From assembly GCA_963792965.1 (NCBI GenBank), contig CAWBYW010000016.1, positions 115,925 through 179,924 on the forward strand: a DNA stretch of 64,000 nt, given 5' to 3'. Shown one piece after another: positions 4,974 to 46,524 of the stretch (position 1 is the first letter of the stretch; each line of letters begins with the position of its first letter). Both the position numbers and the translations under genes were made by a program. This DNA is from an uncultured delta proteobacterium (GTDB lineage: Bacteria > Desulfobacterota > Zymogenia > Zymogenales > Zymogenaceae). Under the pieces are notes generated by a model. That model ran no database searches. It worked only from the letters and a program-made list of their open reading frames with translations, and had not been told where the DNA came from.

Positions 4974-6302
4974 TTACCCCACCGACTTCCTCACCCTCCC
5001 CGACAGCTCCCGCGCCTTAGCCATGATGTCGGCCGCATCCGCCTTCGTTAGCTTGCCGTCGTGCACCAGCACGTCCCCGTTGACCAGCACGTCCCGCACG
5101 TCGGTGGATTTTGCGGCGTAGACGAGGTGCGAATAGGGGTTGTAGACAGGCGTCAGGTGGGGCTTATTGAAATCGACGATGATGAGGTCGGCCTTCTTGC
5201 CGACGGCGAGCGTCCCCACCAGCTCACCGAGCCCGAGGGCTCGCGCGCCGTTTTTTGTGGCGGTCTGGAGGACGGTCTTTGCCTCCATGTGCGTCGGGTC
5301 CGCATCGTAGACCTTGTGGAGCTTTGCCAGCGTATCCATCTCCCCGAAGAGGTCAAGGTCGTTGTTGCTGGCGCATCCGTCCGTGCCCAGCCCCACGACG
5401 ATCCCCCGCCCAAGGTACTTGTGCACCGGCGCCCATCCCGAGGCGAGCTTCATGTTGCTCTCGGGGTTGGTGACGACGGTAACATTCCTTTCACGCATGA
5501 TCTCCATCTCGGCATCATCCACCCAGACGGCGTGGAGCGCCGTGAATCTCTCGTTGAGGACGCCCAGGTCGTCCAGATACTCAAACGAGCTCTTGCCGTG
5601 CTTCTTCTTCACGTCCTCGATGTTTGCACGGGACTCCGCCACGTGGACGATGCAGCGCACCCCAAACCCGTCCGAAATCTCCTTTGCCCGCACGAAGAGC
5701 TCCGGCGAGCAGGTGTCCAGCGCGTGGGGCTGGATGGAGGGAACGATAAGGGGGTCGCTCTGCCACTTCTTGATGAAGTTTTCCGTATACTCGAATCCCT
5801 TCTCGATGGGCCCGTAGTTCGGGGAGGGAAAGTCATAGAGCACCTCGCCGAGCACCCCCCGCATCCCCATCTCTTTGGCGGCTCTCGCCGCCGAGTCCTC
5901 GAAGAGGTACATGTCACAAAAGGTCGTCACCCCCCCGAGCAGCATCTCCGCGCAGGCGAGCTTCGTCCCCCAGTAGACGAAGTCGTCGTCGAGGTTGGCC
6001 TTCTCGGCCGGAAAGATATAGTCGCATAGCCACCGCTCCAGCGGCAGGTCGTCGGCGATCCCCCGAAAGAGGCTCATGGCCGCATGCGTGTGCCCGTTGA
6101 CCAACCCCGGCATCACGACGCATCCCGTCGCGTCAATCTCGGTTCTTGCCGCCCAGCGACGGGCGGCATCGCTCCGTTTCCCCACGAAAGCGATCGCGTC
6201 GCCTACGACCACGACCGCGCCGTCTTCAATCGGGACCCCGTCCTCCATCGTCAGGACGATCCCGCCCGAAATAACTACGTCCGCGCCGATTCTCTCCGTC
6301 AT
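4974..6302 (-). CDS. MtaD-type amidohydrolase/deaminase, second paralog
   Basis: This is the C-terminal 442 aa of ORF 4974..7271, starting at MTERIGADVVISGG (ATG 6300-6302). Motifs GLVNGHTHAAMSLFRGIADDLPLERWL, HVAESRANIE and GLGTDGCASNN are present. Its ATG overlaps the TGA of the restored PNP frame (ATGA). Confidence 0.8.
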   Translation of the reverse strand: MTERIGADVVISGGIVLTMEDGVPIEDGAVVVVGDAIAFVGKRSDAARRWAARTEIDATGCVVMPGLVNGHTHAAMSLFRGIADDLPLERWLCDYIFPAEKANLDDDFVYWGTKLACAEMLLGGVTTFCDMYLFEDSAARAAKEMGMRGVLGEVLYDFPSPNYGPIEKGFEYTENFIKKWQSDPLIVPSIQPHALDTCSPELFVRAKEISDGFGVRCIVHVAESRANIEDVKKKHGKSSFEYLDDLGVLNERFTALHAVWVDDAEMEIMRERNVTVVTNPESNMKLASGWAPVHKYLGRGIVVGLGTDGCASNNDLDLFGEMDTLAKLHKVYDADPTHMEAKTVLQTATKNGARALGLGELVGTLAVGKKADLIIVDFNKPHLTPVYNPYSHLVYAAKSTDVRDVLVNGDVLVHDGKLTKADAADIMAKARELSGRVRKSVG

Positions 6303-7163
6303 TCCTCTTTTGTTTCTCCTATCCGCCGGATTACCGCGGCGATCAGTCTGATGAGGTCCGGACCGGTCCTCTTCTCCCGTGGCGATGATATCGTCGATCA
6401 GGATGGGAGCCATGGCGTCGGGGAGGTTAACGTTGGCCACGAGCGAAAAGCCCAACACCCGCATCCTCACGTGCGCCGCGGTGATCACCTCCATAACCGT
6501 CGACATGCCCAGGGCGTCGGCACCGAGGCCGCGAAACATCCTGGTCTCGGCCGCCGTCTCGAGGCTCGGGCCCAAGACCCCGATATAGACCCCCCGGTTG
6601 ACGTGGATGCCCAGCCTGAGCGCCTCCTCTTCGGCGATCTCGATGAGCTCCCGATCATAGGCCTTCGTCATGTCGGGAAAGCGGGGGCCCAACGTGTCGA
6701 GATTGGGGCCGACGAGCGGGTTACGGCCCGTGAAGTTGATCTGGTCGTGGATAACCATGATCTCCCCCGGCCGAAAGAGCGGATTGAGGCCGCCGGCCGA
6801 ATTGGTGATGATGAGGGTGTTGATCCCAAGGGCGAAGAGGGCCCGGACGGCAAAGGCGATCTCGGGGGCCGTATACCCCTCGTAGAGGTGGAACCGGCCC
6901 TCCATGGCCGCCGTCTCCACCCCGGCGATCCTCCCGATATGCAAAATCCCCGCATGACCCTCCGCGGTCGAGACGGGGAAGTGGGGGATCTCCCCATACG
7001 GGATCGAAACCTCCGTCTCCATGACCGCGGAAGTACCGGAAAGTCCCGTGCCGAGGATCACGGCCACGCGCGGACGGAGGTTTGTCTTGATGAGGATGTG
7101 ATCGGCCGCCTCGTGGATCTCTTTGATCGCTTTGTCTGCATCGCGGGGGGGCTGGACTGTCAT
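6299..7163 (-). CDS. purine nucleoside phosphorylase family (PunA/MTAP-like), frameshifted near the 3' end as assembled
   Basis: N-terminal part of ORF 4974..7271 from MTVQPPRDADKAIKEI (ATG 7161-7163). PNP motifs are present: VAVILGTGLSG, HFPVSTAEGHAG, MEGRFHLYEGY, ITNSAGGLNP, GPSLETAAE, GADALGMSTV. A one-base shift near 6370-6376 restores ...ATG(K/E)RTGPDLIRLIAAVIRRIGETKEE with a stop at 6299. Confidence 0.75.
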
Positions 7164-7313
7164 GGTATGACTCCCTCCACTGAGATAGACCGCTGGACCG
7201 GACGGACACAAACGGTCCGTCTGCGGCGCACGGGTGAGTGGCATACGGTCAGCCGGGCCGCATGAGCACACGGCCCATCGCGTCCGCGCGGCGCACCGTG
7301 CCCGAAAGTATCT

Positions 7314-33932: not shown

Positions 33933-34580
33933 TCAGGGCAACCGTTCCCCCCGCGTGGACGCCCGGCCCTGCCCCCCGATAACCTTTACCGCCTCCTCAT
34001 AGGCCAGCACATACCCCCACCGATTTTTCTCCCTGTCCGTCCGCTCCGAAAGGAGCGCGTCGATCTCGCCGGTGTTCCGGGTGACGGGCTTGGGTCCCGA
34101 AAGGCCCTTTTTCAACGCGTCGATCTCGCCGGCATAGTAGACCGCGAGTCCCTCCGAAAACCAGAGCGGCACGTGGGTGCCGAAACGAAGCCGGAGAAGC
34201 GCGAGACACACCTCATGGGCGACGGTCGACTTCAACACCCCGCGCTCTTTCAGGACGTTCACCGGCTGCAGGTAGATCGATCCGTCGATCATCGCCGAGG
34301 CCGACCAGAACGGCAGCCTCGTCTGGGCCGTGAAATCTCCGGTCTCCTTGAAGATCACCACGTCGATGGGACGGCCCGCGCCGCTCCCAACCCTCGTTTC
34401 CATCGCGGTGTATGCCGATTCGAGGGCGTCCTTTACCTCCGAGAGCTCGCCGGCCCGAAGGGTCTCGGCGAAATAGATATTGAAATGCCGTGTCTGGGTC
34501 TGGGCAAAGTCAAGGGCGCCTGCCTCTCGGCTGATGACGAGAAGAAGGCACGAGATCAGAAATAGGAACGGTCTTCTCAA
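33933..34580 (-). CDS. secreted protein, degenerate peptidase-MA-like (HExxL instead of HExxH)
   Basis: Signal peptide MRRPFLFLISCLLLVISREAGA. VAHEVCLALL...WFSEGLAVYYAG resembles HExxH...E zincin motifs, but the second His is Leu. Weak call. Confidence 0.35.
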   Translation of the reverse strand: MRRPFLFLISCLLLVISREAGALDFAQTQTRHFNIYFAETLRAGELSEVKDALESAYTAMETRVGSGAGRPIDVVIFKETGDFTAQTRLPFWSASAMIDGSIYLQPVNVLKERGVLKSTVAHEVCLALLRLRFGTHVPLWFSEGLAVYYAGEIDALKKGLSGPKPVTRNTGEIDALLSERTDREKNRWGYVLAYEEAVKVIGGQGRASTRGERLP

Positions 34581-35605
34581 TCCGTATGCACGCCTCCGAA
34601 ATAGACGCGGAAAACCTCCCGGGCCACCGGCGCGGCATCCTCACCCCCCCGGCCGTGGTAGAGGAAGACGACCACGGCGATCTCGGGGTTCTCGGCGGGG
34701 GCAAAACCCAAGAACCAGGCGTGAGTCGCCCAGCTGGAGCCGAGGAACTCGCCGGTGCCGGTTTTGCCCATAATCTCGTGCCCGTCCGGCGTCCCCTTGA
34801 CGGCGGTTCCGTACGCCGCCGCATCGCGCATTCCCTCGGCGAGGATCGGCGCCGCGCGGGAAACCTCTACCTTCCTGTTGAGTCTCGGCGAAAATGAACC
34901 GATATCGTCTGCGGTGGGGGTCACGCGGGGAACCCAGATACTGCCCCCGTTCACGAGGGCCGAAAGATTCACGATCACCTGAAGGGGCGTCGCCGTGACG
35001 TTGTCGGTGTCTCCGATGACATACTCACGGGCAAACGCCGGCTCGGGGGGGATGAGCCTTCCCGCCTCCTCCTGTGGAAGGTTGACCCCGGTCTTTTCTC
35101 CAAACCCGAGCTCGGAAAGCCCCCGGTAGGTGGTGTCGGCGCCCAGCGTCTCGGCAAGGGAAAGGAAATAGAGATTACACGAGTAGGCGATCCCGCGGAC
35201 AAGGTTGAGATCACCGTGTCCGGGGGGGTACCAGCAATCGTATTTCGTTCCCGATATAACGGCACTCCCGGTACACCTGAAGCGAGCGTCGGGAGAGATA
35301 CGCTTCTCTTCGATCCCTTTCCAGACGCTCACAAGCTTGACGAGCGAGCCGGGGGGAAAGGCCCAGCGTGTCGCCATGTCGGGCCCCACCATCGCTCTGA
35401 TGCGTCCCGTCTTCACGTCCATGACGACGACCGCCCCGGTCCGGCCCGCCAGGGCGTCGGATGCCGCGCTTTCGAGGAGGGCGTCGCCTTTCAACACCTG
35501 TTCCGGGCCCGGCCTGCAACCCGAGGCGAAGAGAAATAAAAGGGCGACCCCCCCGATGAGGGGTCGCCGAAAGAGTAAACGAATCCGCCGCCGGATCCCC
35601 GTCAT
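34577..35605 (-). CDS. penicillin-binding transpeptidase-domain lipoprotein (no glycosyltransferase module)
   Basis: Lipobox LFASGC. SxxK (PGSLVKL), SxN (YSCN) and KTG (GKTGTG) motifs occur in the canonical order. Overlaps the A2M stop by 4 nt. Confidence 0.75.
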   Translation of the reverse strand: MTGIRRRIRLLFRRPLIGGVALLFLFASGCRPGPEQVLKGDALLESAASDALAGRTGAVVVMDVKTGRIRAMVGPDMATRWAFPPGSLVKLVSVWKGIEEKRISPDARFRCTGSAVISGTKYDCWYPPGHGDLNLVRGIAYSCNLYFLSLAETLGADTTYRGLSELGFGEKTGVNLPQEEAGRLIPPEPAFAREYVIGDTDNVTATPLQVIVNLSALVNGGSIWVPRVTPTADDIGSFSPRLNRKVEVSRAAPILAEGMRDAAAYGTAVKGTPDGHEIMGKTGTGEFLGSSWATHAWFLGFAPAENPEIAVVVFLYHGRGGEDAAPVAREVFRVYFGGVHTD

Positions 35606-38600
35606 TTCCCCTCGGTGATGACAAGGCTTGAGCTTCCCGTCCTTCCGAAGCGGTCCGGGAAGTACATCAGGTACGCCTCGGCCGGCATGACACCGTAGGT
35701 CCCCGGGTTTTGGGCGCGGAGGATATACTTGAAGACATAGGTCCCCACGTCGACGTAGTCCATCGATAGAGCGATCCGCTCATCCCGGAATTCCCTTCCG
35801 GCAAACCACCAGTCCGCATCGCCGGTATAGAGATCGTCCCCGGAGATGACATAGTTTTTATCGTCGCTGATGGCCTCATAGCCCGCCGGGTAGTAGTCCT
35901 CCAGCAGGAAGTATTGGGCCTTCTTGTCGGTCGTGACCGAAAGCTCCACGAGGATCTCGTCCCCGCTACTGACCGGGCCGCTGAGCGGCACCTTCGCGTA
36001 GATGAGCTCTCCCTTCTTGGGCACCTTCTTGAGGAGGTAGTACTTTCTGCTCACGGCAAATCCGGCGTTCAGCGGGGCTATCGAGGGGGCCGCGCTGTAG
36101 TGCGTGAAGGTCGAGGAATAGTAGAGGCTACCCGGCCCGTCCTTCTTGATGACGATCGTATTGGGGCCGGTCTTGAGATCCCCTTCCTTGACGGTAATCG
36201 TTCCCCCCTCGGTGAGCATCGTCTCCTTGGTGATGTGGCTCTTCTTGAGCTGTTTGCCGTTGAGGGTAAGCGTCATGGTGTAGTTCGGCTTGATCTCCCC
36301 GGTCCGGGTGATGTAGTCCGTCAGGGCATAGATGATCTTCCCCGTGGCCTTGGTGGAGCGCCAGTAGCTTCCGGTCCGGTTGATGATAAGCCAGCGGATC
36401 GTCTTGGGGATGAGGGGATTATTGACGTCGCGCATGGCCATCACCCGCAAAACGTACGCGGTGGTCTCCAGGGGATCGGCCTCCCAGTCCCACCAATAGA
36501 AGTCCTCTCCGACGTAACCCCAGTGAACATAGCCGTTCTCCTGGATCTTTTCCTTCATGAGCAGGTCATACAGGACGTTGGCCTTCTCCCGGATCCCCTC
36601 GTTCTCGTAGGCCAACAGCAGCATCGCCTGAGAAATGGGGGTGAGCTTGTCGCGCTTCTCGAACATCTCGTCGAGCCACGCGGTCTTGAGCTTGTCCGTG
36701 TAGGACAAGACGTAGAGGGCGTAGACCTTGACGGAGTCCTGATCGATCTTGCTCAGCTGAGAGATGAGGGACGCGGTGCCGCGCTTGATGACGCCCTCGT
36801 CCACGGTGATGGGAATGCCTGCCTCGGGAAGGAGGCGTTTCGCTTCGAGGAGCCCGTACAACACGTAGGCGGTCATGTAGGGATCGGTCTCGTCGAACTC
36901 GTACCACCCCCAGCCGTTATCGTCGTGCTGCCGTTTGTAGAGCACCATGAGCCCGCTCTTGATGTAGGCGGGGAGGTCCTTCTCTACGCTCTTATCGGAA
37001 AGGTCAAGCTTCTTTAATACCGACGCGACCATGACTGATGGCAAGAACCTTGCCATTACCTGCTCGTTTCACCCATAGGGGTAGCCGACGAGGAATGGTA
37101 TAGCGGCAAGCATTGTGTTGACGAGCGATGGACTGGTGGTAATGGTGAGCTCAGCAGCGTTCTTTATCGTGTTGGCGGGCTTGTTGACCGTCACCGTGAG
37201 CGTCCCGGAGTCCTTGATGATCTCTCCCATATCGTTCTTTGTCTCTTTGATGCCGAGCGGGAGGATCGGCACCTTTATCTCCATTCCGTCGGAGACCTCG
37301 TTGGTCATCGCCTTTGCCGTGAGAACGGCACTTCCCACGAGGTCCGCCCTGACGTGCCAGTCGACGCGCTTCTCTCCGTTTTTCGGGACGATTGCATCGA
37401 CCGGAACGCCGGAAGCGAGCGTCAATCCCTTTGCGTCGAACGTGAAGTGCACCTTCTTGTCGGTCGACAGGTAATTATGGGCGATGGTGGAGATTACGAG
37501 GTCGTCCCCCTGGCGCAGAAATCGCGGCGCCTCTATGCGGACGAGTAAGTCCTTGCGCTCGATGACCCGGTAGGTAGTCTCCCCCATGCTGTCGCCCGTG
37601 GTCACCCCCCGGACCGTCGCACGCCAACGCGTCAGGTTGTCCGGGAAGGTGACGGTGACCGTGGCCATACCCTTTGCGTTGGTCGTGATCGTGGGCGACC
37701 AGTACATCGTGTCCTTGAAGTCCTTTCGGATCAGCGGTTGAACGAGCGTGTCTCCCTTGAAGTCGGCAAGCTTCGTCTCTTTTTCCGGAAGTCCCGCCAG
37801 GAGTCCTTTCCGGTGAGAGTATCCGTAAAAGCGGAAGTAGAGGGATGACGACGTGTCCACGGAATGATAGCGCAGCGAGTAGAAATACTTCTGGATTTCG
37901 TCGACAAGCTCCGGTGAGATGGCGTAGATGGCGTCGTCCACGACGCCGAGCGACACCTCTGCCGACACGGGTTTGCCTGTGCTGTCCGTCGTCTTTATCG
38001 TAAAGGTGCCCTTTTCTTGCGGCTCGTACGTCGCCTTATTGGAGGTCACCTCGACGTTGATGAACTTTTCGGTCGGTGGGATGATGATGTTCTTGCTGTC
38101 CGAATAGAGCTCATCGTTGAAGATCGCGGCAACCGAGAGGTAGATGTTGGGGGTGTATCTCTCCTTTATGGGGAGATCCAGCATCGCCGTGCCACCCGTG
38201 GCTTTGATGACTCGGCTATCAAGGATCGAGTCTCCCTCGGTGGTAATCAACAGATAGGTATCCTTCACCGGCGCGGCGATCAGGATGTGGGCGGTATCGC
38301 CCACCGCGTAGGTATCCTTGTCGGGGATAATCGTGACGCCGCCCTCCGACGTCCCGCCGTAGGCATACCCCTCCGTAAAGGAATACGATGAGTCCTTGGC
38401 CGTGGTGGAGTTGCCCGCGTTATCGAAGACCGTGGCGATGAAATTGACGTCGCCCACGTTTTTCACCGTATATTCGATGACGGCGTCCCCACCGGAGTTC
38501 GTCCTTCCCGAAAGGGTGGCCGAGCTCGTGACCTTGCCCCCCTGCCAGTCGGTCTCCGTGACGATGAGCGTCACCGGCACATTCGCCACACCCTTGTTGT

Positions 38601-40242
38601 CAAAGTCGGAGACGTTGACCGTGATCCGCGCCTTATCCCCCGGCGCGTAGACCCAGCGGTCGGGACGTAGCGAAACGGTGTAGTTTGACCGAACGACCTT
38701 GACGACGCTGCTGGTGGTAACCACCCGGCGCGAGAGATCGGTAACGTTGGCCTCGATGGTGAAGGTATAGTCGTTGTCGGGCGACTCAAGGTATTGCGAC
38801 GTGTCTACCGTGAGCCTGAGCTTCCCGGCGTTGTCGAGCATAGCCGTGCCACTGTCCACCATGACCTTCTCGGTGGCGGTCCAGTAGTCTTCGTCCATGA
38901 AGTACCAGCCCCAGTCGTACCCCCACCACCAGGGGCGCTCGTAGACCGACCGGTAGACCGTATAGTCCACCTTGGCCTCCGTTACGGGGCTGCCGAAGTA
39001 GTAGCCCGCCTCGATATCGGCCGTGATCGTGTCGCCCCGGATGTAGACGTTCTTATCCGTCCTGATCTTGACCTCGTATTCGGGCTTCTTGTACTCCTCC
39101 ACCTTGAAGCTGTTGTAGTAGTTCTGTCCATTCAGTCCCACGACGATCTGATATTCGCCGAGCGAGGGCTCCTCTCCGAGGGTGAAGTCCCCCGAGAGGC
39201 TCCCGTACTTATTAATCTTATAGTTGTTCCGGAAGACCTCGTCGCCCTTGGCGTCGTCGATGATGACCAGGTAGTCGTCGCCGGTGTCGGGAACCTTCAG
39301 CCCCGAGTCGGTGGCGTTTCTCAGGATCGAGCGAAAATGCACCGTGTCGCCGGGACGGTAGACGGGTCGGTCGGTGTAGGTGTAGACCTTGTCGCTTGCT
39401 TCCCCTTCCCCGTAGGCATAGGGGTCGGCCAGGGTGAAGTTCTCGCCGTCCTGGGCGAAGACATAGATGACGTCACTCTCGGTCGCTTTCACCTTGGAGT
39501 AGTAGATCCCGTCGGAGTCCGTCTTCCCCTTGAAGAGGAGTTTTTTCTGGTTGTCGTAGACCGATACCTTAACGCCTTTCATCGGTTTGCCGGTTACCCG
39601 GTCGGCCACGTAGATAAGGCTGTCGGTGCTCGAGTTCTTCACGACAAACGACATGGGGGTAACGACGACCATCGTATAGGCCACCGAATCCTCAAAGACC
39701 GCCTCGACGAGGTAGCACCCCGGTTTCGGGACTTTGACGTCTATGTTGTGGTACTCCCACTGTCCACTGCCCGAGATGACCAACTTCTCCTGCCAGCGGT
39801 TGAGGAGCTTGAACTGGGTCAGGATCGGGAAGAGCTCGTAGGTCTGTGGCGCGGGTGAGACGGGCTCCTGGGCGTGCGGCAGGCCGAGTGCCGAGACGAC
39901 ATCGTCTCGGATGTTGTCGGAGAGTTTTGAGCGATAGTCGTCCCGGAAGAGTTCTACCCCCTTCCGTTTGATCGCCCCAACCATCTCGGCGGGGGCCGAT
40001 GTCCCCCGTTTCGTCGTCACCACCGGCGAGTGGACGTCATCGAGCCCGAGGAAGTACGATTTCGGATCGTCTACCCGGTAGAGCCGGATATCGAGGGACG
40101 GGACATCCATGGAGGAAACGGTGACGGTGACGGGCTCCCCCGGAGCGAAGATCTTGTCCGTGGAGAGCTCAAAGGAGCCTGCGAGCGTCACGGCCGGCAG
40201 TGTTAAGAGCAATACGATCGAAAGAATAAGGGACTTTTTCAT
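35602..40242 (-). CDS. bacterial alpha-2-macroglobulin family protein with an in-frame TGA at the thioester Cys position (candidate selenoprotein)
   Basis: ORFs 37069..40254 (signal peptide MKKSLILSIVLLLTLPAVTLAG after GAGGGA, then MG-domain-like beta-rich repeats) and 35602..37056 are in the same frame. They are separated only by TGA (37069-37071) and 4 sense codons. Read-through gives LVGYPYG-[TGA]-NEQVMARFLPSV, matching the YPYGCxEQ thioester motif. No frameshift was seen across ~4.6 kb. Confidence 0.85.
37038..37071 (-). other. in-frame UGA (37069-37071) plus candidate SECIS hairpin (37038-37056)
   Basis: On the mRNA the order is UGA, then 12 nt, then AUGGCAAG-GUU-CUUGCCAU. This is a perfect 8-bp stem; the apical loop is GUU, or GGUUC if the closing pair opens. 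As I recall it, the E. coli fdhF SECIS is UGA, 11 nt, then GGUUGCA-GGUC-UGCACC. Confidence 0.5.
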
Positions 40243-40485
40243 AGTTTCCCTCAAAGAATGGAGTATATCGTTGTTTGGTCTGTCACCGTGAGAGTGCGCG
40301 GCGACCGCGGCAATCCCCGGCTGTCGTTACCGATACGGAGGTAATAAGGATCCTTCCTCGAGAATCAGGGCTCGCCTCGTTGTGCCACATCGCCTGGCCT
40401 CCCACGATTCGGGCAGGAACGTTCCCCTGCAATGACCGAGAAGAGCTCCCACGATACTTTGGACCTCAAAAGCACCTATAAAGCT

Positions 40486-41619
40486 TTAGTTCAGTATCTT
40501 GAACCGATAATAACCCAAAAAATGGTCGTTCTCTCTTACCGGCCGCCAGCGCTCGTCCGGATGCACTTTGAGCGTGGCGAGCCTGACCTTCCTCACGTCC
40601 CCGTTATCGTGGGAGCGCGGGCCGGTGTGATAGACGAGCCAATCTTCGTTTACGTCCGAATCGCTCTCCTTTCCCCACTCGCCGAGGTAGATCATCATAT
40701 GGGAGGGCATCCGGGGGTTTTCCGGGTTGAAGAAAAAGAGGAGATCACCGGGAAGAATACCCTTCTCGGTTCGCCCGAGGAACACGACGTTGTACTGAAG
40801 CAGCGCCTCGGCCGATGCCGCCGCAGAAAAGTTGACGCCGATATCGGAAGGGACAAACGGCCCCGGCGCCGTCCGAAAGACATCGACTCCCAGCAGCGGC
40901 ACGTGGGGATAGGTGTACTTCTTCACGTCGGGATTTGCGGGGCTGACCAGCGTCGCGTAGGAGGAAAAGAAAGCGTCGTCGTGGCGCTTGAGCGCCTCGA
41001 CATAGGCAAAACGCACAAGCCCCGCACAGTCCCGGTTGATCTGGTCCCAGTGGCGGTTCTTCTCGTAGACTTGAGATTCCGCGATGGCGCAGAGCCACCG
41101 CCGGAAGTTGAGGCGGTCTGTGTCGCCGAAGAGCTCCACCACATCGGGAAACCCGTCCCCGTCCCGGTCACGCATGTCGGGGATAACATTCACCTGTGCC
41201 CGGGCAGGCGCCACCCCCGGAGACTCGGCCCGGATCGTGAGGTCACCCGTCTCGAAGGTCGAGATGAGCGTGAGGGAGGCCGTTCCGCGGACAAACGCGA
41301 GCGGTCCTGTTTCCACCCTTGTCGTCGCCGGGCCGACAAGCGTCACCGTAAGGGGTGCGCCGCAGCCGCGCGCAACATTCCCCCTGTCGGTCTTTGCAAG
41401 GATCGTGATCTCCACGGTATCTTCCTTGTTGGCCCAGAGCGTCTGCTTTGACACGGCGATCTCGATGCTTTTGGCCTTTGCGCACGACGTGATCAAACAG
41501 GCCAACAGGAGCGTCGAAAGGATCGCCGCTCCGCCTTTAATCCAGGTCCTTGACCCTGATCTTAAACCCGCCTTGAATTGCATCACCGCTGAAGTTGACC
41601 CCCCCGTAGCATGAGACAA
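40486..41619 (-). CDS. DUF1175-like lipoprotein (Ig-like domain, DxDxDG Ca-type motif, NlpC/P60-like Cys region)
   Basis: Lipobox LITSC. DRDGDGFPD motif. FRRWLCAIAESQ...INRDCAGLVRFAYVEAL matches my recollection of DUF1175 (E. coli YfaT, encoded next to the A2M homolog YfaS). The likely start is the internal ATG at 41583. Confidence 0.55.
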   Translation of the reverse strand: MSHATGGSTSAVMQFKAGLRSGSRTWIKGGAAILSTLLLACLITSCAKAKSIEIAVSKQTLWANKEDTVEITILAKTDRGNVARGCGAPLTVTLVGPATTRVETGPLAFVRGTASLTLISTFETGDLTIRAESPGVAPARAQVNVIPDMRDRDGDGFPDVVELFGDTDRLNFRRWLCAIAESQVYEKNRHWDQINRDCAGLVRFAYVEALKRHDDAFFSSYATLVSPANPDVKKYTYPHVPLLGVDVFRTAPGPFVPSDIGVNFSAAASAEALLQYNVVFLGRTEKGILPGDLLFFFNPENPRMPSHMMIYLGEWGKESDSDVNEDWLVYHTGPRSHDNGDVRKVRLATLKVHPDERWRPVRENDHFLGYYRFKILN

Positions 41620-45052: not shown

Positions 45053-46524
45053 TCAGCATGATCTATCCTTATTCATTCCCTTCTCATGGCCGACAGGATT
45101 CCGTTTGCGAGGTCCGTGACCTCCCTCTCCAGGACGGTTCGAGGATCGATGACGAGGCTCTCGTCCGAGATTCGTGCGATAATGGTCGGATGCTTGCGTC
45201 CTCAAGCGTCTCTCGAGCGCCTCGGGGCTCTCGGCCAGCGGAGCAATCGTTACCACCCTTGTCGGGATCTGTGCGGTGGGAAATGCCCCGCCGCCCACTC
45301 CCGAGAAGTCATCGGCGGTCGTGACGTGGAACTTCGGATGGGGCGTGGCCGCCAGCAGCTTCACGATCCTTTTGGCCCTTTTCTTCGTCTCGTCATAGGA
45401 CATCGTAATCATCGCCAGGACCGGGATCTTTTTTCGCGCATCAAACGGGTCCCGATAAATCATCAGGGTCGATTCGACGGCGGCAAGCGACAGCTTATCG
45501 ATCCTCACGGCCCGCGCCAGTGGGTTCTTTTTAATGCGGTCCGATCGGGTCCGCCTCCCCTACGATGAACCCCGCCTGGGCACCGCCCAACAGCTTATCG
45601 CCCGAAAAACGTAATGACATCGACGCCCGATTTAATCACTTCCGAGACGGTCGGCTCATGGGGGAGGCCCCAGGGCCCGAGATCCATGAGCGAGCCGCTG
45701 CCGAGGTCCTCCATGACCGGGATGTCATATTTTTTCCCGAGCCCGACGAGCTCGGCGGTCGACACTTCCTCGGTGAACCCGACGATCCGGTAATTGGAGG
45801 TGTGGACCTTGAGGAGGAGCGCGTCTGGCCGACCCGATGGCGCTCTCGTAGTCCGAAAGCCCTCGTCCGGTTCGTCGTGCCGACCTCTCTGAGGCGCGCG
45901 CCGCTCTTTTCCATGACATCCGGGATACTAAAAGCGCCGCCGATCTCCACCAGCTCTCCCCGTGAGACGATGACGTCCCTGCCGTCGGCAAGAGTATTGA
46001 GCGCAAGCAACACGGCCGCGGCGTTGTTGTTGACCGCAAGGCCCGCCTCCGCGGAGGTGATATGGGCGATCAGGTCGGAAACGTGGTCGTGGCGGGATCC
46101 CCGCTCTCCGCGCTCGACGTTGAATTCGAGATTGGAATAGCCCGAGGCGATGCGTACGATATGCTCGAGGGCCTCCGCGGCGAGGGGCGCGCGGCCGAGG
46201 TTTGTATGCAAGATAATCCCCGTGGCGTTGATGACGGGCGCAAGCTGACGGCGTGACCGATTTGATCAGCCACTGCTCGATGAGCGACAAGAGCTCCGGC
46301 TCCGAGACTTCGGCGGGATGCTCTTTGGACATGAGCTCTTTTCGCGCGGACAAAATGGCGCCTCTCACCGCCTCCTTTACCACCATCCTCGGAAAGCGCC
46401 TCGATAGTTCCGTGACCATGGGGTGAGCCAGCAGCTTATCCACCGCGGGGAGTTTGGCGAGAGGGGATTTTTGTGCCGGGTTTTCCGACTTTCTTGGCAT
46501 GGCGCCGCTCGAGATTTTTTCCAT
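45053..46524 (-). CDS. selA: L-seryl-tRNA(Sec) selenium transferase SelA, about 6 frameshifts as assembled (possible pseudogene)
   Basis: SelA-diagnostic peptides are spread over all three frames. They include: KLPAVDKLL...[11 protein letters not shown]; [19 protein letters not shown]; [18 protein letters not shown]; [15 protein letters not shown]; [18 protein letters not shown]; EVGTTNRT; [16 protein letters not shown]; [16 protein letters not shown]; [24 protein letters not shown]. Shifts lie near 46245, 45860, 45835, 45600, 45545 and 45195. The restored stop is at 45073. Confidence 0.8.

Follow-up and report, generated by a model that had tools for sequence, protein, structure and literature searches.

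A UGA codon at the thioester position of a bacterial alpha-2-macroglobulin: a probable selenocysteine-containing member of the family

Bacterial alpha-2-macroglobulins (A2M) of type I, such as E. coli ECAM/YfhM and Salmonella Sa-A2M, share an architecture of MG, bait, A2M, TED and MG10 domains and the thioester motif CXEQ, and are encoded in an a2m-pbpC (PBP1c) gene pair (PMC5764988). Type II is represented by MagD of P. aeruginosa from the six-gene mag operon (magABCDEF), which lacks CXEQ altogether and traps without a thioester, its cleaved fragments staying associated (PMC5764988). The gene described here has the type I architecture with the x-E-Q of CXEQ intact (the closest orthologues have CNEQ), and the adjoining penicillin-binding-protein (PBP) transpeptidase gene resembles the a2m-pbpC pair. 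It differs from type I in having UGA for the warhead Cys, in reading LAGS and not LAGC, i.e., without a lipobox Cys, and in its neighbours: the downstream PBP is transpeptidase-only, and the gene directly upstream is, as for MagD, a MagC/DUF1175 homologue, which is typical of type II operons and is the only mag gene recognised here.

Nearly all known selenoproteins use selenocysteine (Sec) for redox or metal chemistry. The UGA of E. coli fdhF is followed by a stem-loop at a spacing of 11 nt; an in-frame UGA, a stem-loop (at 12 nt here) and a G-U opening of a small apical loop are common to both genes, whereas in our case there is no bulged U, and Sec, instead of acting as a redox residue or metal ligand, would leave from an internal acyl bond. 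The 2026 catalogue of prokaryotic selenoproteins lists the closest precedent proposed for Sec in chemistry of this gamma-glutamyl acyl type, from an enzyme class whose nucleophile forms a gamma-glutamyl acyl intermediate; that acyl-enzyme is transient, whereas the bond in A2M would be stored, buried, single-use and contained within one polypeptide. The proposed exchange of Sec and Cys within the A2M family has a parallel in those bacterial selenoprotein families that have Cys homologues.

The A2M gene and the position of the UGA

The window, by which we mean the whole analysed stretch of 64,000 nucleotides, contains the following features of the gene:

35602..40242, minus strand: complete alpha-2-macroglobulin (A2M) gene, with the internal UGA read through and an ordinary TGA at the end
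40180..40242, minus strand: predicted signal peptide, MKKSLILSIVLLLTLPAVTLA followed by GS, taken from the translation, with a presumptive cleavage site
37069..37071, minus strand: in-frame UGA, the proposed Sec codon at the thioester Cys of G-C-x-E-Q, as aligned with TEP1 (2pn5)
37060..37065, minus strand: Glu-Gln codons GAG CAG of the thioester motif; Gln1061 is the would-be acyl partner

The minus-strand letters around the site are CCC TAT GGG TGA AAC GAG CAG GTA ATG GCA AGG TTC TTG CCA TCA, which gives the context GYPYG-UGA-NEQ, and this TGA is the sole interruption of the A2M frame. The preliminary description of this DNA had noted an ORF of 1061 codons and an ORF of 484 codons in the same frame, with TGA as the single stop between them; this is the case, the two ORFs lying at 37069..40254 and 35602..37056. 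It had also placed the UGA exactly at the warhead Cys with E-Q intact, which the sequence and the TEP1 alignment prove correct to the base: the UGA column is that of the thioester Cys in the solved TEP1 structure (GCGEQ, 2pn5). In all UGA-containing lineages examined, E-Q is kept in frame. As encoded, the gene has UGA-N-E-Q without a Cys codon in place of the C-x-E-Q motif of type I A2M, and it would possess this motif in kind only if Sec is inserted.

When the UGA is read through, translation from the MKK start yields a precursor of 1546 aa in which the internal stop is residue 1058. A single frame comprises 1057 codons upstream of the UGA and 488 downstream, the latter with the TED and bMG10 domains. 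The product has the full bacterial A2M domain set in Pfam (bMG3, MG2, bMG5, A2M_BRD, A2M, TED_complement and bMG10, all above the curated cut-offs), and its sequence matches in the PDB include 4u48, 5a42 and 2pn5, with E. coli and Salmonella A2M structures among the matches; no NCBIfam model matched it. Considering that the lipobox Cys is absent at LAGS, we presume from the sequence that the protein probably resides in the periplasm in soluble form.

TGA had been described as an ordinary stop elsewhere in the window. It is in fact the commonest one, ending 33 of the 60 long ORFs, that of A2M included, and it also terminates neighbouring genes in related loci. This stop usage contradicts the proposal that UGA is reassigned, or generally read through as Trp or Gly, to which we assign practically no weight.

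The earlier observation that the sequence defects of the window are indels and not substitutions, and that the A2M gene is free of frameshifts, was borne out as well. Relative to its orthologues the A2M gene has no frameshift, compared with about 10 in 22 kb of neighbouring genes, and purifying selection is equal in its two halves (dN/dS of 0.1-0.3 on either side of the UGA).

Orthologues and the hairpin downstream of the UGA

Eleven clusters of homologous proteins, of 58-100% identity, all end after GYPYG, and every database copy that we found is annotated as two truncated ORFs. At the DNA level, 10 orthologous sequences, all different and drawn from independent assemblies (Candidatus Zymogenaceae as well as related MAGs and metagenomes), have TGA at the site, and the 32 nt past it are 100% identical across the 10. 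The frame stays open for about 490 codons past the TGA wherever the downstream sequence is complete and unshifted; L006 (frameshift) and L017 and L019 (which run off their contigs) are left out of this statement. At the identical codon of the same syntenic locus there are also Cys forms, with TGT in L001 and TGC in L022/L023. L001 is 85% identical to the UGA-type L005 and L023 is 84% identical to the UGA-type L016; the two Cys orthologues (TGT and TGC) are nested within the UGA clade, and the outgroups all have Cys. Pairs of Sec and Cys orthologues, the check proposed at the outset, are thus present at the locus, with Cys nested among the UGA forms.

These data bear on the possibility that the gene is a pseudogene, or that a recent nonsense mutation or a sequencing error hit the Cys codon. 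TGY becomes TGA by one substitution, the window assembly contains many errors, and singletons such as L025 have no relatives with which they can be compared. However, the errors of the window are of the indel kind, the same TGA recurs in independent assemblies, and the 484 downstream codons, with neither stop nor frameshift, evolve at a dN/dS of 0.07-0.3. We consider this explanation very improbable in general, and for the Zymogenaceae clade it is already contradicted.

Three features relate to the sequence past the UGA:

37038..37056, minus strand: SECIS-like hairpin AUGGCAAG-GUU-CUUGCCAU, its stem starting 12 nt and its loop 20 nt past the UGA
37037..37071, minus strand: block of 35 nt (UGA and 32 nt) that is nucleotide-invariant across the clade in the comparison of orthologue DNA
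37051..37053, minus strand: Ala1064 codon GCA in the 5' arm of the stem; Ala in all Sec forms, Ser in Cys forms and outgroups

The perfect hairpin reported 12 nt past the UGA is present as it was described, with an 8-bp stem and a 3-nt GUU loop, and it is the minimum-free-energy fold (-11.7 kcal/mol over 45 nt, against a shuffle mean of -7.8). The bacterial SECIS consensus specifies a loop of 3-9 nt on a stem of 4-16 bp, G in the first two loop positions, a distance of 16-37 nt from the UGA and an energy of at most -7.5 kcal/mol (PMC13188914). The hairpin agrees with all four constraints: a GUU loop on an 8-bp stem, G first and then U, a spacing of 20 nt, and -11.7 kcal/mol.

A generic scan of the window for in-frame TGA gave 176 candidates and was rejected as too noisy in a sequence of 59% GC; a strict SECIS-pattern scan was therefore used instead, which required an in-frame UGA flanked by long open frames and, 8-16 nt further on, a perfect stem of 6 bp or more with a G/U loop. 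In some 300 kb, made up of the window and related loci, the A2M sites and two weak antisense matches were all that it returned; the arrangement of UGA and hairpin exceeds what chance would give. Rfam gave no match in the whole window at gathering thresholds, nor in 36900..37200 at E up to 10; to our knowledge Rfam has no bacterial SECIS family, so this result says little.

Inside the block, none of 9 degenerate codons varies, compared with 16 of 19 flanking codons of invariant amino acid (Fisher p = 3e-5), and dS exceeds 1 for most orthologue pairs, i.e., synonymous sites are saturated outside the block. The Cys forms have 5-6 of the 10 block codons changed and have lost the hairpin. As to the hairpin conservation that the preliminary description asked about, the structure is thus invariant in the 10 distinct UGA orthologues and destroyed in the Cys orthologues. 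Judging by these substitution patterns, the hairpin is under strong RNA-level selection, and only in the UGA forms of the Zymogenaceae clade. Ala1064 is the only amino-acid position that separates the Sec forms from the Cys forms. Because the hairpin is invariant within the clade, base-pair covariation is absent there. The hairpins of other lineages lie in different registers, as in L024, or are weak, as in L025-L028. In L033, a relative of the Cys type, the position is also occupied by a hairpin with a perfect stem of 8 bp; hence the hairpin is not strictly confined to UGA forms.

The same hairpin admits another explanation, a refinement of the alternative that had been raised from the start. 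The UGA would be a true stop, with restart at the Met five codons downstream, and the hairpin would enforce translational coupling, so that chains of 1057 and 484 aa assemble into a non-covalent, thioester-less trap, like the type II A2Ms. It is true that an AUG, that of the conserved Met of CxEQxM, lies 12 nt past the UGA in the 5' arm of the hairpin, that gene callers annotate two ORFs in every lineage, and that MagD, in working without a thioester, does what such a split protein would have to do. Against this, there is at best a poor Shine-Dalgarno match (an AGG separated from the AUG by 2 nt); the loop sequence and spacing fit the SECIS consensus; TGA has never become TAA, despite the saturation of synonymous sites in the clade; the N-E-Q-V codons, then untranslated, would need to have remained coding and in frame; Cys-NEQ is intact in two nested lineages, as if restored from the UGA form; and a missense change would be a simpler way of losing the thioester. 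The restart hypothesis is weakened by these points, and we regard it as unlikely.

Neighbouring genes, selenocysteine machinery and the proposed mechanism

The neighbouring genes relevant to the problem are as follows:

40486..41619, minus strand: MagC/DUF1175 gene directly upstream of A2M (Pfam PF06672)
34577..35605, minus strand: penicillin-binding-protein transpeptidase gene, overlapping the A2M stop codon (Pfam PF00905)
45076..46524, minus strand: selA (selenocysteine synthase), with a Se-cys_synth_N match, in about 5 frame segments

The MagC/DUF1175 gene stands alongside the A2M gene in all lineages examined, and no other mag-like partner was found, the remaining neighbours having no Pfam match. 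The PBP gene encodes 342 aa with the transpeptidase domain only (Pfam finds no transglycosylase domain in it) and is syntenic in L022/L023.

A selA gene had been reported about 8 kb upstream of A2M on the same strand, and it is there. In the window it is broken by about 4-5 frameshifts (three-frame reading, tblastn), which are probably assembly indels and less probably the mark of a dead selA in this genome; it forms a single intact frame in L001, L002 and L006 (tblastn) and is likewise intact, as PF03841 SelA, in L022/L023. In a genome of candidate division KSB1, the distance between selA and the A2M gene is about 9 kb. The expectation of further Sec machinery was answered in part: selA is syntenic and intact in relatives, but selB, selC and selD were not seen in the window, a point in favour of the split protein, to which the presence of selA in the lineage is opposed. 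Specifically, neither the window nor L001-L007 contains a tRNA or tRNA-Sec that ARAGORN recognises, Pfam assigned none of 37 ORFs of the window to SelB or SelD, and the flanks of the related loci likewise gave no selB, selD or tRNA-Sec.

A conserved UGA with a SECIS-type hairpin exactly at the thioester Cys very probably marks an undescribed selenoprotein. The reading of Sec for Cys put forward in the preliminary description is supported by this conservation, by the nested TGT and TGC forms, by the hairpin and by selA in the lineage. We believe, with a probability of roughly 0.78, that the gene encodes a selenocysteine-containing type I bacterial A2M.

The mechanism that we propose is the following. 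SelB-GTP-Sec-tRNASec would bind the GUU-loop hairpin and insert Sec at residue 1058, giving the 1546-aa precursor, although some ribosomes probably terminate at the UGA too. The precursor would be exported by means of its signal peptide. On folding of the TED, the selenolate of Sec1058 would attack the side-chain amide of Gln1061 with release of ammonia, and the product would be a buried gamma-glutamyl selenoester, the counterpart of the thioester in A2M and C3. Once a protease has cut the bait region, this bond would be exposed, an amine of the protease would attack it, and the protease would be caught by a covalent link. Because selenols leave more readily than thiols, the selenoester should transfer its acyl group faster than a thioester does, at the price of being less stable and of making the protein dependent on selenium. 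Formation and reactivity of the selenoester are inference only.

It is also conceivable that Sec is inserted and forms no selenoester, serving as a redox or metal-binding selenol, or that the UGA acts mainly as a selenium-dependent switch between truncated and full-length forms. Since selenoesters lie above thioesters in energy, it is not assured that one would form spontaneously from the Gln amide, which favours such a role; moreover, most known selenoproteins are redox proteins (PMC13188914). However, neither the E-Q partner nor the remainder of the TED has changed, Ala1064 alone separates the Sec and Cys forms, and the free interchange of Sec and Cys within the clade implies that the two residues have the same role. 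We presume that a function without the selenoester is rather improbable.

Recurrence in other lineages and significance

In five further places in the A2M tree the Cys codon is likewise TGA and is followed by an intact TED ORF. Of the 7 stop-bearing lineages, 6 have their stop at the Cys codon (p = 4e-4 under a uniform model), although a single mutation would also turn nearby Tyr, Glu and Gln codons into stops; this again speaks against a split protein. In a KSB1-like group the codon pair AGG/CCC, which creates pairing, is common to both UGA forms and absent in both Cys forms; the molybdopterin oxidoreductase beside the KSB1 A2M locus has no obvious UGA-extended N-terminus. P0229, for which no close relatives turned up among homologues, is a singleton and only a candidate. 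In a distinct lineage, the Glu codon of the motif, two codons past the Cys position, is replaced by an in-frame TAG in two orthologues of only 51% identity, with Met three codons downstream and local nucleotide conservation. This conserved TAG means that stable stops in the motif can exist without Sec, as the split protein would require.

We consider the chances even that Cys was replaced by Sec repeatedly in bacterial A2M (in a minimum of two lineages, both well supported, and a maximum of six) and that this is the first natural stored intramolecular selenoester warhead. The switch to Sec may be easy because the conserved M-x-R-F-L-P past the Cys can be encoded as a palindrome. Such a palindrome puts the G-UU loop exactly 20 nt past the codon, so that one change of TGY to TGA may be workable at once in a Sec-using organism. 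Sec could thus arise repeatedly wherever a coding sequence has a SECIS-like fold beforehand.

The novelty of a Sec-containing A2M, claimed in the preliminary description, holds against the May 2026 catalogue: its 119 prokaryotic selenoprotein families include no A2M or thioester protein. A search of the literature for selenocysteine or selenoprotein together with macroglobulin or thioester protein found nothing relevant. Synthetic selenoesters are in chemical use for ligating faster than thioesters (PMC11600164). If our reading is true, the Sec and Cys orthologues, 84-86% identical, provide to hand a natural experiment on the reactivity of a selenoester and a thioester. In this protease trap, with complement C3 and A2M as its relatives, Sec is predicted to serve as leaving group when a spring-loaded acyl bond is broken, and the protein would, if this is true, add a non-redox selenoprotein family missed by current catalogues and annotation pipelines.

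The UGA codon and its orthologues

The preliminary description placed a UGA exactly at the thioester cysteine of alpha-2-macroglobulin (A2M), between two ORFs of one frame, and this is upheld by the sequence, the frame, the Pfam domains and an alignment with Anopheles TEP1. The minus strand around the site reads CCC TAT GGG TGA AAC GAG CAG GTA ATG GCA AGG TTC TTG CCA TCA. The frame of 1546 codons, from the ATG at 40242 to an ordinary TGA stop at 35602, has this TGA as its sole interruption. Its conceptual translation is a complete bacterial A2M (bMG3, MG2, bMG5, bait region, A2M, the thioester domain TED and bMG10, every domain above the curated Pfam cut-offs). In a comparison with solved structures, which also matches the A2M of E. 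coli and Salmonella, FLVGYPYG-[UGA]-NEQVMARFLPSVMV is aligned with HLLGVPTGCGEQNMVKFVPNILV of TEP1; the UGA is therefore at the thioester Cys position.

Features of the window around the A2M gene
34577-35605, minus strand: PBP gene with a transpeptidase domain only, downstream of A2M
37071..37069, minus strand: in-frame TGA (sequence reading)
37056..37038, minus strand: hairpin AUGGCAAG-GUU-CUUGCCAU (predicted minimum-free-energy structure)
40486-41619, minus strand: MagC/DUF1175 gene, upstream of A2M
46524..45076, minus strand: selA (Se-cys_synth_N domain), about 8 kb upstream of A2M, same strand

Codon reassignment of UGA is ruled out, since TGA, already described as an ordinary stop here, is the commonest one in the window (33 of the 60 long ORFs) and also terminates the A2M gene itself. 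The MagC/DUF1175 gene is the partner typical of the type II mag operon, and the PBP gene, having solely the transpeptidase domain, resembles the type I A2M partner; the neighbours combine types typical of both bacterial A2M classes. Elsewhere in the window, a 765-aa ORF (4974-7271, minus strand) joins PNP_UDP_1, a nucleoside phosphorylase domain, with an amidohydrolase domain.

A search of 5.8 billion proteins gave eleven clusters of 1057-1063 aa at 58-100% identity, all ending in ...GYPYG, and a full-length homologue, 59% identical, that reads GYPYGCNEQ; all database copies found are annotated as two separate ORFs. One scan of species-representative genomes and one of metagenomes yielded 10 distinct orthologous DNA sequences (from Candidatus Zymogenaceae, related Thermodesulfobacteriota, or "delta proteobacterium", MAGs and environmental contigs), with TGA at the site in 10/10. 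An open in-frame continuation of ~490 codons follows the UGA in every complete orthologue, the exceptions being locus L006, frameshifted 21 codons downstream, and loci L017 and L019, which stop at contig ends. At the identical syntenic locus (selA, ABC ATPase, MagC, A2M, transpeptidase gene), two orthologues have a Cys codon, TGT in L001 and TGC in L022/L023, so that the proposed search for Cys- and UGA-containing orthologues found both. Neighbour-joining recovers the clade as monophyletic with respect to Cys outgroups at 36-40% identity; each of the two Cys forms falls within a different subclade, with identities of 85% and 84% to the UGA-type sisters. To judge from the sequences, this alternation is the classic selenocysteine (Sec)/Cys pattern.

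Pairwise dS exceeds 1 in most pairs, and dN/dS is 0.1-0.3 both upstream and downstream of the UGA; both halves are therefore translated and constrained. With TGA present across orthologues and both halves constrained, a pseudogene or a sequencing error at the Cys codon is effectively excluded.

The hairpin as a candidate SECIS

As had been proposed, the hairpin begins 12 nt past the UGA; structure prediction gives it as the minimum-free-energy fold. The 32 nt past the UGA (AAC GAG CAG GTA ATG GCA AGG TTC TTG CCA TC) are identical in 10/10 distinct UGA sequences. None of the nine degenerate codons within them varies, against synonymous variation in 16 of the 19 flanking codons with an invariant amino acid (Fisher's exact test, p = 3e-5). 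The invariant block extends from the UGA to one base beyond the stem's 3' end. Both Cys orthologues differ in 5-6 of the 10 codons (GTG ATG TCG CGC/CGG TTC CTG CCG), and neither folds into the hairpin. A single column of the whole-protein alignment, residue 1064, separates all Sec forms, which have Ala (GCA, within the stem), from the in-clade Cys forms and five outgroups, which have Ser; apparently, one protein substitution was accepted to accommodate the RNA structure.

The bacterial SECIS consensus quoted in a 2026 review (PMC13188914) comprises an apical loop of 3-9 nt on a stem of 4-16 bp, a G within the first two loop positions, usually then G or U, a UGA-to-loop distance of 16-37 nt and a folding energy of at most -7.5 kcal/mol. 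The window element, with its GUU loop, 8-bp stem, 20-nt spacing and -11.7 kcal/mol, agrees with all four constraints. A strict pattern scan of ~300 kb (the window and related loci) gave two weak antisense matches besides the A2M sites and nothing else; an Rfam search gave no match for the hairpin region or the window.

The hairpin is not strictly limited to UGA forms, since a perfect one of 8 bp, AUGGGCAG-GUUC-CUGCCCAU, is present, again at a 12-nt offset, in Cys-type locus L033 (protein P0016, TGC; L033:6244-6300). This hairpin may be what is left of the SECIS of a Sec ancestor after Sec-to-Cys reversion or, alternatively, a pre-existing structure that would make a single TGY-to-TGA change immediately decodable.

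Stop codons in other A2M lineages

A wider survey of 1.84 billion representative proteins, extended by homologue searches, brought up other N-terminal fragments ending exactly before the Cys (P0121, P0371, P0376, P0379 and P0229). Their DNA has TGA, an in-frame x-E-Q and 483-513 more codons (TED and bMG10), and they occupy five additional places in the tree, each beside Cys forms.

Additional TGA sites at the Cys codon
L024:9337-9339
L026:8199-8201
L028:3545-3547
L027:5032-5034
L025:9271-9273

Their Cys-type relatives are 46-86% identical, except for P0229 (L025), whose nearest is at ~37%; P0121 shares 69% identity with P0016, and P0371 shares 86% with Cys-type P0122, in whose group there is also a protein of candidate division KSB1. 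The L024 hairpin (AUGGGCA, A(GUU)U with a bulged C, UGCCCAU) is good and is likewise spaced by 12 nt. Two KSB1-like UGA forms share AGC AGG TTT CTG CCC, giving GCAG-GUUU-CUGC pairing, which is abolished in two Cys relatives by CGG and CCG or CCT. The G-UU of the actual or would-be loop has one position in the window, L024, L025 and L026/L028: it begins exactly 20 nt past the UGA and is built from codon +7 (third base) and the conserved Phe codon at +8; L027 has G-UU at that position, without a convincing hairpin that places it in the loop. The hairpins of L025 and L027 are poor and L025 is without close relatives, and we regard both as candidates.

In one more lineage (L029, L030/L031), the first ORF ends ...PYG-C-T and an in-frame TAG occupies the Glu codon of CxEQ (GGC TGC ACG TAG CAG ACT ATG TCG).

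TAG sites at the Glu codon
L029:8184-8186
L030:8217-8219
L031:8217-8219

The frame goes on through TED and bMG10, and the TAG is kept between orthologues just 51% identical, with ~40 nt around it nearly invariant; in neighbouring genes TAG is an ordinary stop. This lineage cannot be a case of Sec, and it demonstrates that a stable stop can persist within the thioester motif; a stable split gene, read-through of the amber codon or pyrrolysine might explain it.

The clade itself might likewise end translation at the UGA and resume at the AUG 12 nt further on, within the hairpin, so that its A2M would consist of two chains and lack a thioester. The AUG is available, and type II A2Ms such as MagD function without a thioester (PMC5764988); nevertheless, we presume this explanation, the serious rival, to be unlikely. 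The stop is at the Cys codon in 6 of the 7 stop-bearing lineages (p = 4e-4), yet a single step would equally turn nearby Tyr, Glu or Gln codons into a stop. The old clade has no TGA-to-TAA drift. The N-E-Q-V codons would be untranslated, yet they remain coding and in frame, and an intact Cys-NEQ motif occupies the UGA site in two nested lineages. Moreover, the AUG has a poor Shine-Dalgarno match, selA is present in the lineage, and the hairpin obeys the SECIS rules.

Sec machinery and the proposed selenoester

The position reported for selA was confirmed, though the window copy is broken into about five frame segments. The window has, against orthologous loci, around ten frameshifts over 22 kb in five genes (45076-46524, in selA, and about 49121, 48607, 44390, 42060 and 32620), 4-5 of them within selA alone; MagC, A2M and the transpeptidase gene are free of them. 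Similar defects occur in related long-read MAGs, and the frameshifts, those of selA included, are therefore most likely assembly indels of the long-read type; a truly defective selA in this genome is conceivable. The gene is intact and syntenic in L001, L002, L006 and L022/L023, and to our knowledge it has no role other than in Sec, which is why we believe that the lineage uses Sec. Of the machinery sought, selA is present, and tRNA-Sec, SelB and SelD are absent from the 64-kb window and the flanks of related loci that were searched. Directly downstream of selA, an 86-aa ORF (L023:5110-5370, plus strand) weakly matches EF-G domain 2 (E = 5.5e-5) and EF-Tu domain 4, translation-factor beta-barrels.

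In KSB1 genomes selA is ~9 kb from the A2M gene; the two genes are within 5-10 kb, in different orientations, in Zymogenaceae-type loci and an unrelated candidate division KSB1 genome. This closeness could reflect chance or a functional link.

selA near A2M
L034/L035:23517-24734, minus strand
window 45076-46524
L023:3609-5027

In the selenoester reading, SelB would probably read the hairpin and insert Sec at residue 1058, a step that sequence and comparison support. By inference, the protein would be exported via a signal peptide ending LAGS and, as this has no lipobox Cys, would probably be soluble in the periplasm. In the folded TED, the selenolate would attack Gln1061 to form a gamma-glutamyl selenoester, which bait cleavage would expose to protease amines. 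In peptide ligation, synthetic selenoesters outpace the corresponding thioesters (PMC11600164); by analogy, a faster but less stable trap is plausible. Besides Ala1064, Sec and Cys forms have no consistent residue difference, which argues that Sec would play the same role as Cys.

A 2026 catalogue of 119 prokaryotic selenoprotein families lists no A2M or thioester protein, nor do the BSepDB and deep-Sep papers mention one in their main texts. No model of NCBIfam release 20 matches the A2M protein, and full-text literature searches combining selenocysteine with macroglobulins or thioester proteins gave nothing relevant. Neither the A2M scaffold nor the mechanism of recoding is new in itself; their combination is, and it would place Sec in a stored acyl-transfer warhead.
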